From sequence record KX828711: a stretch of DNA of 64,000 nucleotides, one strand, 5' to 3'. This DNA comes from Shigella phage SH7. A program made the translations under genes and the position numbers. This document shows positions 2,250-62,526 of the stretch, piece by piece (the first letter of the stretch is position 1; the number at the start of each line of letters is the position of its first letter). The notes under the pieces were generated by a model that was not told the DNA's origin, ran no database searches, and saw only the letters and a program-made list of their open reading frames with translations.

Positions 2250-3254
2250 TTAGCTCACCAACTCAATCCAAGCTGGACGAAGTACATCTTGTACCATTTT
2301 AACTAATTCCTTCTTAATCAAAGAAGGATTATCCGCTTGAGTTAGAGTAATACCTTCACGAGAAGTTTCTTCCAAAATATCTTGAACAGTTAGTCCCATC
2401 ACCTTTCCAAAATCTTTAGGACCAATTTCACCAATTTTAGAAATAACGTTATTTACTCGGTTCAGTGTAACGTAACAAGCTAAAATTCCTACCAATTTGT
2501 TATCAGCTTCTGATAGTTCAACTTTAACTTTAATAGGCTTATCAGACTTTTTCTTTTCACTAAATTTGGAATTCTTGCATTTAATTGCTACACGATTGCC
2601 ATTAGGCATCCAAGAAGGATAACAAGGTTTCAATACATATCCTTCAGCGGTAAATACTTCGCCTTTTGCTTCGGCATTCCAAACGCATTTATTTGCATCA
2701 ACTAATCCAGCATGGTCTACTGTAAAATTATAATCTTGGACGACAGAATCTAAATCATTTGGCAATTTAATAAGCTCTTCAAATTTACCGCGACCTAAAA
2801 GTGGAGCAATTTTAAATTTAAATGTATTGCAGAATGATTCCATCATATAATCATCGACATAAGTCACGTCACCACTTTCCATAGTAACAATAATGTCAAA
2901 TACATAGAAATCTTTATCACCATAATCAACATTCTTCTGAATGCCAGGCCCAGCGAATTCACCAAAGACTTGATAAGATACAACTGCTGAAGTTTCCATA
3001 ATATCTTGTACTGCTTTAATGGAATCATCGTAATTCTTTAGAATAATTTCATACCCAAAGAAATCTTCAGCAGGAAGAATCGGTCCAGTACGTTTAGCGC
3101 AAGTTACTTTATCACGCTCGATAATTAGTGAAAAGTTTGTGCCGTGAATCTTTTCACGAGCTACCCACTCCCCACCAGTCAATCCCAGGCTATAAAGTTT
3201 TTCAATAAATTTAGAGTTGTAATGATTTTCAAGACTGCTATACTTTTTAAACAT
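2250..3254 (-). CDS. rnlB: RNA ligase 2 (Rnl2)
   Basis: 334 aa as in T4 Rnl2; [16 protein letters not shown]...EKIHGTNFS with ligase lysine motif KIHG. Confidence 0.92.
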
Positions 3255-3832: not shown

Positions 3833-4963
3833 TTATGGATAAGTATAGATGATACCAGTTTCTAAAGCAGTTTTATGAATGATGTATCCATTACGTGATT
3901 CTTGAACATCAACTTCTGGATAGTCTTTCATCATTTTCTGAAGAGTGTAACGGTGCAAGTAGTACTTACTATCTGGGTCGTCAGTTTTCCAATCTTTACC
4001 TTCTTCAGTCATTTTTTGGATTTCATCCATAACCCACCAACCGCACCAGATATAAGCTGAAGTACGATGTGGAAGAGGATGAACATAAGGCAATTCACCT
4101 TTTGGTTCCGTAGCAACTTTATCAGTTACCTGAACTTGACCTGTTGTTTTAACTGTTTTGCTATCATAGTCAGTTGCTGTAACGACAGCAGTAACTTCAA
4201 TAGTTTGACTTCCAACAGATGAGGTATCAACAGTATATACGTTAGTTGACCCTTCTACAGGAGAAGAATCTTTCTTCCATGAATAAGTAATTTGCGCTTC
4301 TTCTGGAGCATCAGTGACATTAGCAGTAAATGTAGCCGAAGCATCTTGCTGAACATTAATAGAAGGAGGAGTCAATGTAACCTGTGGATTCATTGTCTTT
4401 TTATTAACCGTCAGTGACACTTCATTAGAAGTAACGCTCAGTGCATCATAATCTGTCGCAGTTACTTGAGCTATGCACTTGATTTTTTTAACTCCGCTTG
4501 TGTCAGGAGTGTAATTGAATGTAGCAGAAGTTGCTTCGCCCACAGGAGAACCGTCAACGTACCATTGATACGTAGCAGATGCACCTGATGGCTGCGAAGC
4601 CAAAGCAGCGGTAAATTCAATAGCTGTTCCGATTACTCCAGCGTCAGGGCTATTAGGAGTTACAGCTAAGGTGGTCGTTTGTGTCTTATTTTGAACTGTG
4701 ATAGTTGTTGTCGCTTCAGCCGTTTCCGGGCCTCCTTCAGAAAGTGTATTTGTTGCAACTACTTTAATAGTCTTTTGACCGGCAGGTCCTTTTAGTACAT
4801 AACTAAAAGTTGCTTCAGCTCCATCTTGTGGAGCATCATCTACAGTCCAAGCATATGTAATAGTTCCGCCTCCAGTTTCACCACTGGGTGTAGCAGTAAA
4901 CTGCTGAGTCTGATCTATAACTCCAGTAGGTGTTTTAGGAGTTATATCAACTGTAAAAGTCAT
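3833..4963 (-). CDS. hoc: Highly immunogenic outer capsid protein Hoc
   Basis: 376 aa as in T4 Hoc; repeated Ig-like segments; syntenic position. Confidence 0.85.
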   Translation of the reverse strand: MTFTVDITPKTPTGVIDQTQQFTATPSGETGGGTITYAWTVDDAPQDGAEATFSYVLKGPAGQKTIKVVATNTLSEGGPETAEATTTITVQNKTQTTTLAVTPNSPDAGVIGTAIEFTAALASQPSGASATYQWYVDGSPVGEATSATFNYTPDTSGVKKIKCIAQVTATDYDALSVTSNEVSLTVNKKTMNPQVTLTPPSINVQQDASATFTANVTDAPEEAQITYSWKKDSSPVEGSTNVYTVDTSSVGSQTIEVTAVVTATDYDSKTVKTTGQVQVTDKVATEPKGELPYVHPLPHRTSAYIWCGWWVMDEIQKMTEEGKDWKTDDPDSKYYLHRYTLQKMMKDYPEVDVQESRNGYIIHKTALETGIIYTYP

Positions 4964-57592: not shown

Positions 57593-58228
57593 TCACAGTT
57601 CAGATGCTACAGTGATTACAGCTTCAATGTTTTCTGCCGAGCGTTTAATGTCAAGATACACATTACCGTTTTTAGCGATTTTACATGACATTCCGATATC
57701 AGTAAATTTCTGAATATGATGTTCCATCATTTTGTATCCAAAAATTCGCATATTTCCATTGTTGTTAATTTCAAAATTACGAATTCCGTGAGTGCGTTTT
57801 TCTAAAATAGCGAGATAATTACTACGATAAGTTTCAACCTTTTTAAGAACAAATCCATTTTCATCTAAAAGTTTTAACATGAGGTCTTTATCTTCTTCCA
57901 TATCGGAAGTAATCTCGCGAGCTTTACGAGTTGCTCGTTTTTTCAGCAGTTCCGGAGCATTTTCCTGTGCATATAAAGTTGCTGCATTTGAAATAATATC
58001 CTGAGCTTCACCAGTAATGATTAATCCATCACCAGATTTCTCCACCAGGCCTTTTTTAATCAATACCCCAATATTACTATTAACTACTGCGTTACCTAAA
58101 TCTGGATGCACCTCACGAACTTCTGCAGCTGTAATGAAATCTTTCTTAGCAATGGTAATTAAAATCGTAGCAGTTTTTTCATTCAGAACATCGTTAGAAG
58201 CTTTGATGATGTAAGTTACTTTAGACAT
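57593..58228 (-). CDS. motA: MotA middle-transcription activator
   Basis: 211 aa as in T4 MotA; MSKVTYIIKASNDVLNEKTATILITIAKKDF. Confidence 0.93.
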   Translation of the reverse strand: MSKVTYIIKASNDVLNEKTATILITIAKKDFITAAEVREVHPDLGNAVVNSNIGVLIKKGLVEKSGDGLIITGEAQDIISNAATLYAQENAPELLKKRATRKAREITSDMEEDKDLMLKLLDENGFVLKKVETYRSNYLAILEKRTHGIRNFEINNNGNMRIFGYKMMEHHIQKFTDIGMSCKIAKNGNVYLDIKRSAENIEAVITVASEL

Positions 58229-58269
58229 TTTCTAATCTCCGTAATTCTGTATCAGTAGTTGATAGTTGT

Positions 58270-58299
58270 ATAGTACCACAGTATGCTTTGGTTGTAAAC
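58270..58299 (-). promoter_or_regulatory. Early promoter for motA (terminator-plus-promoter cassette)
   Basis: Minus strand GTTTAC then 18 nt then TACTAT with the conserved upstream TTTTTCACAAAAC element. Confidence 0.6.
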
Positions 58300-58329
58300 C
58301 GTTTTGTGAAAAAATTTTTGAAATAAAAA

Positions 58330-58349
58330 GGGAGAGCCAAGGCTCTCCC
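58330..58349 (-). terminator. Rho-independent terminator after the gene 52 operon
   Basis: GGGAGAGCC/GGCTCTCCC 9 bp stem followed on the minus strand by TTTTTATTT. Confidence 0.7.
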
Positions 58350-58354
58350 TAAAA

Positions 58355-58504
58355 TTACTGCATGACTGTGATAACTGTCATGATAACACGTTGAATTCCG
58401 AATGCAAGAAGACCTCCTGCTACGGCTGGAACAACACCTAAACCCGCCAGTAAAATGCTACCAGATACTAATGCAGTGCTTGTAATACCTATGAATGGAC
58501 TCAT
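58355..58504 (-). CDS. Small hydrophobic membrane protein (below ORF-track cut-off)
   Basis: 49 aa MSPFIGITSTALVSGSILLAGLGVVPAVAGGLLAFG...; ATG overlaps the gene 52 stop (ATGA). Confidence 0.45.
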   Translation of the reverse strand: MSPFIGITSTALVSGSILLAGLGVVPAVAGGLLAFGIQRVIMTVITVMQ

Positions 58505-59829
58505 TTGATTTCCTCTAAATCTTTAGTGTATTCAGTAACTACATCAGTAGTTTTCCAATATTCGTTTTCTTCTTTTTTAGCTTTAGCTTCTTCAGCAAGT
58601 TTCTTCGCTTCATCGGAAGTCATATGAAAAATATTCATTCCAACTAGTTTATCAACATAAGAAGAATACATATCGATTTTCGAAAGTTCTTCGGTCAGTT
58701 CTTTACGAGTTTTACCCTGTACAACAATTTCACCTGAAATTACTTTCTTAATGAAATGTGCCTTGGCAAAGGCTAAACGAAATGCTGATTCAGTTTCTTT
58801 AATTTTGTTATCAATTCGTTTTTGGACATAAGTTTTACGAACTTCAACGAAGTCTTCAATTAAATCGACTACGTTATCGTAAACTTGTAGTTTTCCTTTC
58901 TCATTAATAACCGTAATATTCTGAGAACGACGCTCAATCAACCCGAAGTCTTTCATAATTTTTGCATGGCGTTCTTCTTCGTTATCGCTCAAAGAATATT
59001 CTTTACGGAATTTAACTTTAAAGCCAAAACCATGCTCACCACAAGCATCATCCCATGTAATGAAGCCTTTATCTTCAAGCGGGTCTAAGATTTTACTCAC
59101 ATAAGTTTCACGATCATACTTATACGGAATCTCGGTGATATGCATTTGAGTTCGTGAAGTAAACTTGTACGTTCCACGAATTTCATATTGACCATCAATT
59201 TCAACGACTTCACCGCGAAATTCTGGGAATTCTACCTTCGGTTTAGTTACTTTCTTTCCTTGAAGAGCTTGTAGTACAGCTTTCTTGACAGAAGAAACAC
59301 TATGAGGAAGAATGTAAGTTGCATAACCGGTTGCAATACCGGAAACACCATTAAGAAGAACAGTAGGAATAATAGGCAAATAGAAAGCAGGCGGAATGTG
59401 TTCTTTATCTTGATGTACTGGAGCATATTCAGTATCTTTATATACGTTATAGAAATTTTTACTTACACGAGCAAAAATATAACGACTAGCTGCTGCCTTT
59501 TGGACAGTACGAGAACCAAAGTTTCCTTGACCATCTAACAGAGGAAAATTATTATTCCAAGTGTTAGCCATTAAAGCTCCCGCATCTTGCGCAGAGTTTT
59601 CACCATGATGATATCCAAGGTCCGCTACACCACCTGCAATAGAAGCGAGTTTGTGAAACTTATCTTTATTTCCTCGTGCCAAATCAAGAGCTCGAGCAAT
59701 AACAAATCGTTGAACTGGCTTAAATCCATCAATCATATTTGGAATAGCACGATTTTCAACCGTGTACATAGCATAAGCCAATGCTTCATTATCAATGATA
59801 CTTTTTAAATCGCGATTATTCAGTTGCAT
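58501..59829 (-). CDS. 52: DNA topoisomerase II medium subunit gp52
   Basis: 442 aa as in T4 gp52; gyrase-A-like N-terminal region. Confidence 0.95.
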   Translation of the reverse strand: MQLNNRDLKSIIDNEALAYAMYTVENRAIPNMIDGFKPVQRFVIARALDLARGNKDKFHKLASIAGGVADLGYHHGENSAQDAGALMANTWNNNFPLLDGQGNFGSRTVQKAAASRYIFARVSKNFYNVYKDTEYAPVHQDKEHIPPAFYLPIIPTVLLNGVSGIATGYATYILPHSVSSVKKAVLQALQGKKVTKPKVEFPEFRGEVVEIDGQYEIRGTYKFTSRTQMHITEIPYKYDRETYVSKILDPLEDKGFITWDDACGEHGFGFKVKFRKEYSLSDNEEERHAKIMKDFGLIERRSQNITVINEKGKLQVYDNVVDLIEDFVEVRKTYVQKRIDNKIKETESAFRLAFAKAHFIKKVISGEIVVQGKTRKELTEELSKIDMYSSYVDKLVGMNIFHMTSDEAKKLAEEAKAKKEENEYWKTTDVVTEYTKDLEEIK

Positions 59830-59833
59830 AAAT

Positions 59834-59974
59834 TTACCATACTAGTGAATGTAGTGCCATAATAACATCAGAAATGAAAAGCACGACTTGAATCAATCCG
59901 AACATTACTCCATAATATAGTGCTACTAATAAAGTAGCAAGGGCTAATGAATAGCCCAAGATTTTCTTAATCAT
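59834..59974 (-). CDS. Small hydrophobic membrane protein (below ORF-track cut-off)
   Basis: 46 aa MIKKILGYSLALATLLVALYYGVMFGLIQVV...; reading frame closes cleanly. Confidence 0.4.
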   Translation of the reverse strand: MIKKILGYSLALATLLVALYYGVMFGLIQVVLFISDVIMALHSLVW

Positions 59975-60125
59975 TAGTAGATAACAACACAAATGTTAAA
60001 TATGCACACATACCCTGGGCTAAAGCCTGTGAAAACACACTGCTAGCATCGATACAGATAGTTAAAACACATGCTACTATCCAACAAATAAATGAAATAA
60101 CTCCTAATAATTTTGCAATATTCAT
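59967..60125 (-). CDS. Small hydrophobic membrane protein, possibly Ac-like
   Basis: 52 aa MNIAKLLGVISFICWIVACVLTICID...; T4 ac lies at this position with similar size. Confidence 0.4.
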   Translation of the reverse strand: MNIAKLLGVISFICWIVACVLTICIDASSVFSQALAQGMCAYLTFVLLSTND

Positions 60126-60132
60126 ATTTTCC

Positions 60133-60213
60133 TCACTGGCGTCCGAAGACGCCTTTAGTTTTAAGATTATTACGATAGAACTGCATCACGTGTTCGTTGT
60201 GGAAATTACTCAT
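60133..60213 (-). CDS. stp: Stp peptide (activator of host PrrC anticodon nuclease)
   Basis: 26 aa [29 protein letters not shown] matching T4 Stp; start overlaps the ndd stop (TAATG); absent from ORF track because of size. Confidence 0.8.
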
Positions 60214-60671
60214 TAATATGCCTGCAAAACGAATTTAAAGTTATCAGCCAACATACGGTTCATTTCTTCAAGTGTTTGATACTCAGAATGATGATTACGA
60301 GTAAACGCTAAAGCTAACTGTCCTTTTCCAAATCCCGTCGTCAGAGGTTTCATCTTAGAAGCAGGCAGATAAAATACTGTGTATGGAACATTGTTATTTG
60401 CAATAGTACGCGCAAGCTGAGACCGACGTTGACGAATATGACTTAGAACTGCACTGAATCCTTGCTTAGAACGTTGATTACCTACATAAAATCGTGCTGA
60501 CACACATGGATTACTAAATGGATGACCATCTAATTTACTTACTAAAAAGTAAAATCCAGGTTTAGATAAAATATCTTTATGCGGAGTTCCCAAAAACCAC
60601 TCACCACCCTTGATTGTACCAATAACAGTAGCACCTGCATTATTCAGATCAGTAACAGTCATGTATTTCAT
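60213..60671 (-). CDS. ndd: Ndd nucleoid disruption protein
   Basis: Start trimmed to [18 protein letters not shown] (152 aa; T4 Ndd about 151 aa). Confidence 0.9.
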
Positions 60672-60731
60672 ATTGATTTCCTCTAAATTATTTTCTACTC
60701 CAAGGCCGCATGAATTCATACGGCCGATAGA

Positions 60732-60947
60732 TTAATCGTCGCAGTCGACGCTCAATTCCCAAAACTCTTCTACAGTATAAGTTTCAGTATCATTTTCAAT
60801 ACAGAAACGTTCATTACTGTTATTTGCTAAAGTAGCGTTAACTGTCATTTTCTCGCTAGTGCTCTTAAGAGGTGAAATACGAATTAACTGATCACCATTA
60901 TCTAAACAAAAAATTTCACCAACTTTTACATCTTTAAAAATTTTCAT
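60732..60947 (-). CDS. Hypothetical protein
   Basis: 71 aa ORF. Confidence 0.55.
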   Translation of the reverse strand: MKIFKDVKVGEIFCLDNGDQLIRISPLKSTSEKMTVNATLANNSNERFCIENDTETYTVEEFWELSVDCDD

Positions 60948-61062
60948 AATTCACCTCAGGGAGTATAAAATCCAAATGCAGTTGTTGACCATCCCATCCA
61001 ATATGGGATATTTGCGCCAATGTAAAATACAAGAATATAAAACCAAATGCTTAGTAAATTCA

Positions 61063-61281
61063 TTATTTTACACCATTCCAAATTGTTTCAACCACAGATT
61101 TCAAACCATTTTGGTGAATATCCATTCCGACAACTGCCATTAAATAAATTCCAACTACAACTGAACCCAAGGCGAAAATCAACATGAAAATGAATAAAGC
61201 CGGAAAAATATTATCGAAAAACCATTCCATAAATGTAAAAGCACTGCGTTTACGCTTCATATTTTCCTCACATAAATCCAA
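61063..61281 (-). CDS. Hypothetical membrane protein
   Basis: 72 aa; hydrophobic segment FPALFIFMLIFALGSVVVGIYLMAVVG. Confidence 0.5.
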   Translation of the reverse strand: MDLCEENMKRKRSAFTFMEWFFDNIFPALFIFMLIFALGSVVVGIYLMAVVGMDIHQNGLKSVVETIWNGVK

Positions 61282-61381
61282 AGTAAGCGTTTAATACATC
61301 AATCATTAAAACGATTGGGAATATACTCAAAACTATTAATATTATAACTACATTCCATATAGCTTTAACAATCTTTTTCAT
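61268..61381 (-). CDS. Small hydrophobic membrane protein
   Basis: Start trimmed to the ATG at 61381 (MKKIVKAIWNVVIILIVLSIFPIVLMID...), 37 aa; the ORF-track extension covers the promoter. Confidence 0.4.
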   Translation of the reverse strand: MKKIVKAIWNVVIILIVLSIFPIVLMIDVLNAYFGFM

Positions 61382-61409
61382 TTTGTGTTCCTCCGTAGTT
61401 GATAGGGTA

Positions 61410-61439
61410 ATACTACCACGGAGGAACAGTCTTGTAAAC
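61410..61439 (-). promoter_or_regulatory. Early promoter for the 37 aa membrane ORF
   Basis: Minus strand GTTTAC then 18 nt then TAGTAT; 9 bp inverted repeat TTCCTCCGT/ACGGAGGAA (61388-61426) brackets the -10. Confidence 0.55.
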
Positions 61440-61624
61440 AACTTTTTTAAAAATATTCGTAATAAATGTGAATACCAACTACTACCGCTGAAACCTGTGC
61501 AACCCACCACGCACAAGCAATAAGTACAGAATTCAAAATTTTCATAATAACCTCATCACAAAAGTAAATGTTAAACAAATTACTGGAATACTAATTAACC
61601 AAACAAAACACCACCATAATGAAC

Positions 61625-61888
61625 TCATAGTTCAATCTCAGCGATTTTCATTTCATTACTATTAATAGCCGCTTTAAGACTATCTGAAAGAATTACATTC
61701 CAGTGGTCATTCATATGGCCATTAACTAAGCGTGTAATTTCTTCAGGAGTTGAAAAATAAGGTTGATCAGACTCCCAATGTGATAATCCTAAGCGAGTAT
61801 AAATCATGCCTTCATCATCGCTAGAATATTCAACTGACACAAACTCATCAGTTATTTTATGTTTAGCGTAATAAAATTTAAATTTCAT
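61625..61888 (-). CDS. Hypothetical protein
   Basis: Start trimmed to the ATG at 61888 (MKFKFYYAKHK...), 87 aa; the ORF-track extension to 61987 covers the promoter. Confidence 0.55.
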   Translation of the reverse strand: MKFKFYYAKHKITDEFVSVEYSSDDEGMIYTRLGLSHWESDQPYFSTPEEITRLVNGHMNDHWNVILSDSLKAAINSNEMKIAEIEL

Positions 61889-61922
61889 TTTATTCTCCAA
61901 ATCCATATCAGTTGATAGTTGT

Positions 61923-61952
61923 ATAGTACCACGGTCCTTGTGGTATGTAAAC
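61923..61952 (-). promoter_or_regulatory. Early promoter (third copy of the conserved promoter cassette)
   Basis: Minus strand GTTTAC then 18 nt then TACTAT, near-identical over about 60 nt to the promoters at 41576-41605 and 58270-58299. Confidence 0.6.
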
Positions 61953-61968
61953 TGTTTTGTGAAATTTT

Positions 61969-62526
61969 TTAAATGGAAAGATACCATCCGTTGTAGTTGC
62001 TTTTTCTTACAACCTTACGAAGGTCTTCTCTGTCACCGATGAACTTCGGAGTGTACTGGATGACACCTGGATGAATTTCTTTAGTGTTGAATATAATTAT
62101 ACAGTCAGCGACTTGATGATTTAGAATGGGTCCTAGATTTATTCCAGAACCGTATGGATACTCTCCGCTGCATCCTGTTGTTACAGAAATCCAACGTGAG
62201 TCAGTTTGGTGTGTCTTAACTTCTACACGAAGCCCGCAGTATCTTGGATGCGCCAATACATCCCATGCGTATGTATACGGGTCATTAACATCTTCTTGAC
62301 CTTTATTGACATATCCGCTTAGCCAATCTGCCACAAAAAACTCTGCGTACACAGCGATACGGCATCTTTCGATAACTTCTGCTTTATCCTGGTTCGGGTT
62401 TTGTTTTAAAGAGTATCTTGCTGTATCAGCAATTTTGACCTTCATTTCACTAGTCAAGTCACTGTTCGATAGGGTAAATGTCGGAATCTGAAATAGTCTC
62501 TGTAAACCCGGATTCGTTTTCTGCAT
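61969..62526 (-). CDS. denB: Endonuclease IV (DenB)
   Basis: 185 aa as in T4 DenB; lies between rIIB and ndd. Confidence 0.9.
   Translation of the reverse strand: MQKTNPGLQRLFQIPTFTLSNSDLTSEMKVKIADTARYSLKQNPNQDKAEVIERCRIAVYAEFFVADWLSGYVNKGQEDVNDPYTYAWDVLAHPRYCGLRVEVKTHQTDSRWISVTTGCSGEYPYGSGINLGPILNHQVADCIIIFNTKEIHPGVIQYTPKFIGDREDLRKVVRKSNYNGWYLSI

Follow-up and report, generated by a model that had tools for sequence, protein, structure and literature searches.

Eight small hydrophobic genes between motA and denB of Shigella phage SH7 are T4-type accessory genes that probably encode host-envelope-modifying membrane peptides

Escherichia coli possesses a set of inner-membrane regulator peptides, among them AcrZ, MgrB, MgtS and SgrT, each of which is a single helix of 30-50 amino acids (aa) that binds a larger membrane protein. 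Phage T4 encodes small proteins that likewise act at the envelope, and two of these, Imm and Sp, are early, membrane-located, non-essential and conserved. A further T4 gene, ac, determines acridine sensitivity: acriflavine inhibits the wild-type T-even phages, which become resistant when ac is lost, as known for T4 and T2 (bioRxiv 10.1101/2025.06.30.662393). Here we analyze a stretch of 64,000 nucleotides (nt) from Shigella phage SH7 (record KX828711; hereafter the window), in which ac belongs to a cluster of eight small hydrophobic genes lying between motA and denB on the minus strand: motA.1, 52.1, ac, ndd.2, ndd.2a/3, ndd.4, ndd.5 and ndd.6. All eight are already annotated T4-type genes. 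We estimate a probability of about 85% that they are genuine, early-transcribed accessory genes whose products are inner-membrane peptides that modify the host envelope.

The window is a T4-like (Tequatrovirus) genome whose early genes lie on the minus strand, and the cluster occupies the non-essential stretch from motA to denB, next to rII. A megablast search with positions 58200-62000 returned 775 phage records, 485 of which reached at least 80% query coverage and the best of which was 97% identical. The open reading frames (ORFs) map one-to-one onto the annotations of T4, RB14 and Bas41; the T4 orthologues (52.1, motA.1 and ndd.2 to ndd.6) are 89-100% identical, and gene order, overlaps and promoters are conserved. 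The original prediction, made from the letters of the sequence, had proposed at least five tightly packed, hydrophobic ORFs of 37-72 aa in this interval. All five are present on the minus strand, at 58355-58504 (motA.1, 49 aa), 59834-59974 (52.1, 46 aa), 59967-60125 (ac, 52 aa), 61063-61281 and 61268-61381 (ndd.4, 37 aa), and each is strongly hydrophobic, the best Kyte-Doolittle window of 19 aa scoring 2.3 to 3.1. Three neighbors of the same character had been overlooked, namely ndd.2 (60956-61063, 35 aa), ndd.5 (61447-61545, 32 aa) and ndd.6 (61542-61628, 28 aa), which brings the total to eight. The 72-aa reading of 61063-61281 begins at an upstream TTG. The ATG at 61260 sits behind a Shine-Dalgarno sequence (GAGGAAAAT), and annotations of relatives start the gene there as well, so that the likely product of this gene, ndd.2a/3 (61063-61260), is a hydrophobic peptide of 65 aa. 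With that start, the supposed overlap with ndd.4 gives way to a gap of 7 nt. Overlapping starts and stops are nevertheless found at five junctions: motA.1 with gene 52 (ATGA, 58501-58504), 52.1 with ac (8 nt, 59967-59974), ndd.2 with ndd.2a/3 (TAATG at 61063), ndd.5 with ndd.6 (4 nt, 61542-61545), and ndd.6 with an 87-aa ORF upstream of it (ATGA, 61625-61628). Throughout the cluster, starts are ATG codons with either a GAGG-type Shine-Dalgarno sequence or a stop/start overlap, and by sequence analysis these overlaps mark several of the genes as candidates for translational coupling to their neighbors.

Short hydrophobic frames need not be genes at all, because AT-rich DNA read in T-rich frames yields Phe/Leu/Ile-rich peptides by chance. 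Across the window, 43 of the 63 hydrophobic small ORFs lie inside long genes in other frames; one of them, a very hydrophobic 59-aa ATG-ORF at 59247-59426 (minus strand) within gene 52, is a chance ORF that is not conserved as a gene. Because the genome is AT-rich and such ORFs are this frequent, hydrophobicity alone is weak evidence, and conservation is therefore decisive. Even so, the cluster stands out by number. The 1340 nt of minus strand between the larger genes hold eight ATG-ORFs of 28 aa or more, which are hydrophobic without exception and together cover 1056 nt (79% of the space), and the plus strand of the same 1340 nt holds none. Shuffling (n=1000) produced a mean of 0.72 and a maximum of 4 hydrophobic ORFs, and no shuffle (0/1000) reached the observed eight.

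We then ran the test that the original prediction had set for itself, conservation of the reading frames in relatives, using 18 homologous loci: eight from Tequatroviruses, nine from other T4-like enterobacterial phages and one from an Acinetobacter phage. The frames are conserved. In close relatives every one is intact, except in laboratory T2 (ac and ndd.2a/3) and in the T4 reference, and five (52.1, Ac, ndd.2a/3, ndd.4 and ndd.6) are also recognizable by their motifs in Dhaka-, Mosig-, Gapriver-, Kanagawa-, Jiaoda-, Winkler- or Karamvirus. Searches with tblastn found 52.1 in 811 phage records, including those of Klebsiella and Enterobacter phages, ndd.2a/3 in 493, motA.1 in 491 and Ac in 461. 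Within the genus, the ratio of nonsynonymous to synonymous change (pN/pS) was 0.04 for motA.1 (among nine Tequatrovirus sequences), 0.08 for ac, 0.12 for ndd.5, 0.14 for ndd.2, 0.16 for ndd.2a/3, 0.33 for ndd.6 and 0.37 for 52.1. Between genera it was 0.09-0.24 for 52.1 (against Dhaka-, Gapriver- and Mosigvirus) and 0.30-0.39 for ndd.4. In shifted frames of the same alignments the signal was lost for most genes, the exceptions being 52.1 (0.29 in the +1 frame) and ndd.4 (0.15 and 0.42). Taken with the shuffles, the strong purifying selection, the assignment of each ORF to a PHROG or Pfam family of its own and the genetic phenotype of ac (below), this conservation refutes the chance-ORF explanation for the cluster as a group, and we regard it as having a negligible probability.

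Each peptide matched one PHROG family of its own (E<=1.6e-17); for PHROG 3487 (MotA.1), 4135 (Ndd.2), 3098 (Ndd.4), 5011 (Ndd.5) and 8851 (Ndd.6) the matches spanned the whole peptide, with E-values from 9.5e-31 to 1.6e-17. A scan of Pfam and NCBIfam at E<=10 gave DUF7396, DUF7248 and otherwise noise. Profile-profile comparison of the eight families and two further families from the same slot detected no paralogy, all probabilities being below 40%; the eight are thus mutually unrelated, and an origin of the cluster by tandem duplication was rejected. A non-coding RNA was also rejected, as no match in an Rfam scan came close to a gathering score. In the T2 record MH751506, in-frame stops interrupt ac (codon 11; 2969-3124) and ndd.2a/3 (codon 45; 4072-4269); such nonsense codons are consistent with genes that laboratory stocks can do without, or that are even selected against there.

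The cluster members, from their sequences, are predicted to be peptides of 28-65 aa that amount to little more than one long hydrophobic helix each, and 52.1, ndd.2a/3, ndd.4 and ndd.5 have basic N-termini. The Gly/Ala-rich, hydrophobic motA.1 (GLGVVPAVAGGLLAFG) is 98% identical to motA.1 of T4 and RB14 (PHROG 3487, E=9.5e-31), and an AlphaFold2 (AF2) single-sequence model places residues 3-48 in one helix (predicted local distance difference test score, pLDDT, 91). 52.1, whose stop falls 5 nt short of the gene 52 start, corresponds to Pfam DUF7396 (PF24129; 81.9 bits against a cut-off of 27, positions 1-46 of 46) and to PHROG 3595. It begins with KK, followed by a variable hydrophobic first half and a near-invariant second half, and its invariant residues are Y20 Y21 G22, Q29, S35 D36 and the terminal W46; AF2 with a 13-sequence alignment modelled one helix over residues 2-45 (pLDDT 96). 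A single long helix of this kind, in 52.1 as in motA.1, is compatible with a single-pass peptide or a hairpin alike, and the members of 46-52 aa may be either a single pass with an interfacial helix or a helical hairpin. The smaller ndd.2 (PHROG 4135, E=1e-22; 89-94% identity in eight Tequatroviruses) is aromatic-rich and hydrophobic with no charged residues. Of the remaining three, ndd.4 (PHROG 3098, E=3.9e-21) follows a GGAGGA Shine-Dalgarno sequence, has an N-terminal KK..K and then one hydrophobic segment, and is 58% identical in Dhaka-, Gapriver- and Kanagawavirus, where the block KAIWN...VL[SA]IFP[IV]V.MID is conserved; ndd.5 (PHROG 5011, E=3.6e-26; 94-100% identity in eight Tequatroviruses) has one hydrophobic segment behind its basic N-terminus; and ndd.6 (PHROG 8851, E=1.6e-17) has one hydrophobic segment and a C-terminal Arg, with homologues in Mosig-, Dhaka-, Gapriver- and Kanagawavirus that share the motif W..[IV]W[LFVM][LA][SC]IP[VML][IV]C.

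The longest member, ndd.2a/3 (PHROG 2401), matches Pfam DUF7248 (PF23906) over residues 5-63 with 73.4 bits against a cut-off of 27, and does so only with the ATG 61260 start. A KRKR N-terminus, a 27-residue hydrophobic segment and a conserved 20-residue tail containing the C-terminal motif [DN]GLKS[VL]VE.[IVL]W[NE]G together suggest a topology with the N-terminus inside and the C-terminus outside. The 65-aa frame is intact in RB14, Bas41, Ac3, F1, teqdroes and FL08, and homologues occur in Gapriver-, Jiaoda-, Winkler- and Karamvirus. The T4 reference differs: when NC_000866 5925-6140 is set against window 61055-61270, one G is missing in T4 right after the start of the gene, following ATGAA (T4 ATGAACGT; window ATGAAGCGT). 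As a result the T4 annotation divides the gene into ndd.3, an out-of-frame fragment of 26 aa, and ndd.2a, a fragment of 40 aa that starts at an internal Met; in the window and in nearly all relatives it is a single gene of 65 aa. The frameshift in T4 is either a laboratory-strain pseudogene or a sequencing error.

That the cluster is expressed early is indicated by its promoters and by the record for T4. As had been proposed, early promoters lie upstream of cluster ORFs: we found three consensus matches on the minus strand, the first at 61923..61951 (TTTACA-17-TACTAT with TG, opening the 87-aa ORF, ndd.6 and ndd.5), the second at 61410..61438 (TTTACA-17-TAGTAT with TG, in front of ndd.4), and the third, TG-extended TTTACA-17-TAnTAT at 58298-58270, which is the promoter of motA and lies downstream of the motA.1 terminator. 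All three bear the T4 early signature of an A/T-rich upstream block, GTTTACA, a 17-nt spacer, a TG-extended TAnTAT and a common block (CTATCAACT). The terminator is an intrinsic-terminator-like hairpin at 58329..58350 (minus strand; a 9-bp stem with 6 GC pairs, then a T-run, TTTTTATTT) that begins 5 nt past the motA.1 stop and closes the transcription unit. From these positions, two transcription units are likely: one from the promoter at 61951 through the 87-aa ORF, ndd.6 and ndd.5, and one from the promoter at 61438 through ndd.4, ndd.2a/3, ndd.2, ndd.1, ndd, stp, ac, 52.1, 52 and motA.1 up to the terminator. Sequence analysis thus predicts sigma-70-type early promoters that would yield long polycistronic messages also carrying ndd, stp and topoisomerase gene 52. 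In T4, transcripts of all cluster genes are classed as early (PMC9697503 Table S2), and the description of motA.1, 52.1, ndd.2a/3 and ndd.4 as small early membrane peptides of T-even phages is borne out by their T4 orthologues.

Among cluster members only Ac has an assigned phenotype, acridine sensitivity, and there is no recorded function for the others, in agreement with the original prediction that most of these ORFs would be without known function. The 52-aa ORF that occupies the place of T4 ac is indeed its orthologue: it shares 96% identity with T4 Ac and 100% with RB14 Ac, matches PHROG 2501 over its full length (E=3.7e-25), follows a Shine-Dalgarno sequence (GAGGAAAAT) and lies, as in T4, between stp and 52.1 and upstream of gene 52. 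Database proteins 96-98% identical to it carry PF26944. It differs from T4 Ac by one extra Thr three codons ahead of the stop, and this is the commoner variant, 328 of the 461 records being at least 99% identical to the window protein; the variant, as in phage PP01, is still acriflavine-sensitive (bioRxiv 10.1101/2025.06.30.662393). The only motif invariant across both Ac clades, T4-type and RB69-type, is [ST]V..Q...QG, and its glycine, G38, is present in the window protein as in T4. A search with phmmer against 1.84 billion representatives gave five matches and no homologue outside T4-like phages: three were short Ac-like proteins, two of these bearing T4-like phage names, and the other two were long proteins, one matched over many stretches, which we regard as spurious.

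T4 without ac, or with G38R, is resistant to acriflavine, and ac expressed alone sensitizes E. coli to both acriflavine and ampicillin (bioRxiv 10.1101/2025.06.30.662393). Ac is thus the one documented case: cells carry a higher acridine load when it is present, whether they are infected or express ac without infection. According to the same 2025 preprint, Ac would be located in the inner membrane and would block the AcrAB-TolC efflux pump, a proposal repeated in a 2026 PNAS paper (PMC13250531). We consider it highly probable that Ac in the membrane causes some increase in net dye entry; the AcrAB-TolC pump as its specific target is a more tentative matter, to which we give somewhat less than even odds. 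AcrZ offers a parallel here: the window peptides resemble AcrZ-type peptides in size and in their predicted single hydrophobic helix, and AcrZ binds AcrB, a component of the pump proposed for Ac. AcrZ tunes the pump, however, whereas the effect of Ac would be the opposite, inhibition, and AcrB binding by Ac is a proposal.

Extending this picture to the group, we propose that the peptides would enter the inner membrane of the host during the first minutes after infection, and that each would bind or modify envelope components of the host stoichiometrically rather than act as an enzyme. By analogy with Ac, there is perhaps an even chance that the other seven likewise act as small helical peptides tuning host inner-membrane proteins or lipid synthesis; they are dispensable on laboratory hosts and would be retained for other conditions or hosts. 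In a genome-wide T4 CRISPRi-ART knock-down screen all cluster genes scored 'Not Fit' and gene 52 scored 'Fit' (PMC11879866), and T4 saΔ9, in which 52.1 through denB are deleted, gives 50% of the wild-type yield (PMC6071114).

Several points weigh against this interpretation. Mass spectrometry of T4-infected cells detected none of the cluster peptides (Class_P = NA; PMC9697503 Table S2), although non-detection is expected for tiny hydrophobic proteins, and our literature search found no T4 ribosome-profiling study; direct proof of translation is therefore available for ac only, by genetics. Within-genus constraint is weak for ndd.4 (pN/pS 0.93) and ndd.6 (0.33), with very few substitutions in either. 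The AF2 models say little on topology, because isolated hydrophobic peptides are nearly always modelled as helices. Nor do known structures help, as phmmer with Ac and 52.1 against all PDB chains found no match at E<=10 and PDB sequence searches with Ac, 52.1, motA.1 and ndd.2a/3 returned nothing meaningful; in contrast to their likeness in size and helix, these four therefore show no sequence similarity at that threshold to any chain in a set that presumably includes AcrZ in its AcrB complexes. AcrAB-TolC as the target of Ac stands as a preprint proposal. Finally, the lipid phenotype of saΔ9, an envelope link for the group, could stem from ndd, stp, ndd.1 or denB.

That phenotype raises the possibility that one or more peptides redirect host phospholipid synthesis, stimulating phosphatidylglycerol production through inner-membrane lipid enzymes. 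The saΔ9 deletion (52.1, ac, stp, ndd, ndd.1-6 and denB) abolishes the phage-induced rise in phosphatidylglycerol synthesis, two other large deletions keep the rise, and the authors of the review that reports this point to the region's predicted membrane proteins (PMC6071114). However, the phenotype covers the whole deletion rather than one gene, the work was published only in a review, and the partly overlapping rIIΔDD2 also lacks the stimulation, so that the gene may be denB-proximal, or may be denB or ndd (PMC6071114). We found no similarity of the peptides to lipid-metabolism proteins in Pfam or NCBIfam, and consider this explanation unlikely.

The original prediction had also mentioned superinfection exclusion, and some of the peptides might indeed be exclusion or envelope-sealing factors like Imm and Sp that block DNA entry by later phages or lysis from without. 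The resemblance to T4 Imm, Sp and rI/T is one of general character: all are small early or membrane-located envelope modifiers, non-essential in the laboratory, and the cluster peptides share with Imm and Sp that they are early, predicted to be membrane-located, non-essential and conserved. Yet Imm, Sp and rI/T are larger, lie at other loci and belong to unrelated families, with no PHROG cross-match to the cluster peptides, and the known T4 exclusion functions map elsewhere in the genome. Down to E=0.01 our PHROG scan assigned each peptide to its own family or a close variant of it, with no homology to Imm or Sp, and thus gave the proposed role no support. In the papers we examined, no exclusion phenotype is given for saΔ9 or related deletions (PMC6071114), nor is there a report of an exclusion or lysis phenotype for this region. 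We judge an exclusion role very unlikely and keep to a more general modification of the host envelope.

A different set of observations concerns the position of these genes around topoisomerase gene 52 (58501-59829). Small membrane-peptide genes occupy the gene 52 slot in every Tevenvirinae genus examined. Ten of our comparison loci lie outside Tequatrovirus, one from an Acinetobacter phage and nine from enterobacterial Tevenvirinae that span seven named genera, one record being without a genus. In eight of these ten, a hydrophobic ORF of 23-49 aa starts at or in the gene 52 stop codon, where the window has motA.1 (58355-58504): L004 2392-2496, L005 2416-2496, L006 2407-2496, L007 3398-3496, L008 4432-4581, L009 3355-3426, L011 3359-3499 and L012 4315-4455. 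These ORFs belong to several unrelated families that differ between genera, and those of AnYang, WFbE185, ZX14, Kp5N and CkP1 are unannotated in GenBank. On the other side of gene 52, 52.1 is also found upstream of the gene in Dhaka-, Mosig-, Gapriver-, Kanagawa-, Jiaoda- and Karamvirus, and the gene 52-ndd interval (loci L002, L004-L009 and L011-L013) holds two to four small ORFs with two hydrophobic segments each, from at least four unrelated families that include 52.1 and Ac. Bas41 carries both Ac clades next to each other. Of the other families, one of 52-54 aa occurs in AnYang, VR26, ZX14 and Gravdalen, and one of 57-60 aa, marked by a conserved F/VER motif, in ZX14, Kp5N, Gravdalen, CkP1 and Pet-CM3-4. 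In the Acinetobacter phage Maestro, the same slot is taken by two unrelated ORFs of two segments each.

Such persistence could mean that 52.1 and motA.1 work for the phage itself, perhaps as membrane anchors of its gp39/gp52/gp60 topoisomerase or of replication complexes. 52.1 stops 5 nt ahead of gene 52, and the start of motA.1 lies within the stop codon of that gene; 52.1 keeps its place in the six genera listed for it above, a hydrophobic ORF recurs at the motA.1 position in eight of the ten loci, and a cryo-electron microscopy (cryo-EM) study reports that the T4-type topoisomerase II is poisoned by the aminoacridine m-AMSA. The same study, however, found purified T4 and T6 topoisomerase II to be active and structurally complete without small subunits, and we rejected topoisomerase subunits as the principal reading of the peptides on that ground. 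Moreover, knock-down of 52.1 or motA.1 costs no fitness and knock-down of gene 52 does (PMC11879866), Ac alone sensitizes uninfected cells in which the topoisomerase is absent (bioRxiv 10.1101/2025.06.30.662393), and tight packing with ATGA overlaps is common throughout T4 genomes. Because the enzyme is complete without the peptides and their knock-down is neutral, a functional link between the gene 52-flanking peptides and the topoisomerase is improbable, and the tether itself slightly more so. In a broader version, the flanking genes would form a functional unit whose fast-evolving peptides either couple or shield the machinery of DNA topology and replication at the inner membrane or together shut down host efflux, leaving the membrane in a state favorable to replication. 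This seems to us as improbable as the link to the topoisomerase; if true, acridine sensitivity would be a side effect of the unit and not an isolated quirk of Ac. Modification of the host envelope remains the reading we prefer for all eight peptides.

The larger minus-strand genes around the cluster, motA (57593-58228), gene 52, ndd (60213-60671) and denB (61969-62526), were identified by mapping the annotations of RB14, Bas41 and T4. Interspersed with the hydrophobic genes are the hydrophilic stp (60133-60213, 26 aa) and ndd.1 (60732-60947, 71 aa), also on the minus strand. The last codons of stp contain a perfect hairpin with a UUCG tetraloop (GGCGUC-UUCG-GACGCC, 60138-60153, minus strand) that stops 5 nt short of the ac Shine-Dalgarno sequence, and the stp variant of T2 and F1 lacks it; the hairpin could stabilize the message or modulate translation of ac. 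Between ndd.6 and denB the window carries a hydrophilic, soluble 87-aa ORF (61625-61888, minus strand) that is missing from T4 and T2 and whose allele in F1 and teqdroes is only 55% identical, which marks a mosaic spot. A program-made ORF list reads it as 120 aa (61625-61987), as does the annotation of FL08, where it overlaps denB. Because the early promoter at 61951-61923 falls inside the 120-aa extension and the ATG at 61888 follows GGAGAATAAA, 87 aa is the likely product. Omissions are frequent among the relatives: 52.1 is unannotated in four of the eight close relatives (Ac3, F1, teqdroes and T2) despite an intact frame, stp is omitted in Ac3, F1 and teqdroes, and ndd.6 in Ac3, teqdroes and T2. 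Small-gene under-annotation is thus widespread in T4-like records.

The observation of a small-peptide cluster at this locus and its reading as early membrane peptides are correct, but both are already catalogued in T4 and its relatives, and nothing new is added to that catalogue. The value of the comparison is in part one of annotation, since 52.1, stp, ndd.6 or the peptide at the end of gene 52 is missing from many public T4-like records, and since a one-base deletion splits ndd.2a/3 in the T4 reference. More generally, small phage membrane peptides are an under-studied class, and the cluster supplies a few candidates for experimental work: Ac may act as a natural multidrug-efflux-pump inhibitor, and the block may also hold a gene that controls host phosphatidylglycerol synthesis, the saΔ9 phenotype being the second lead after Ac.

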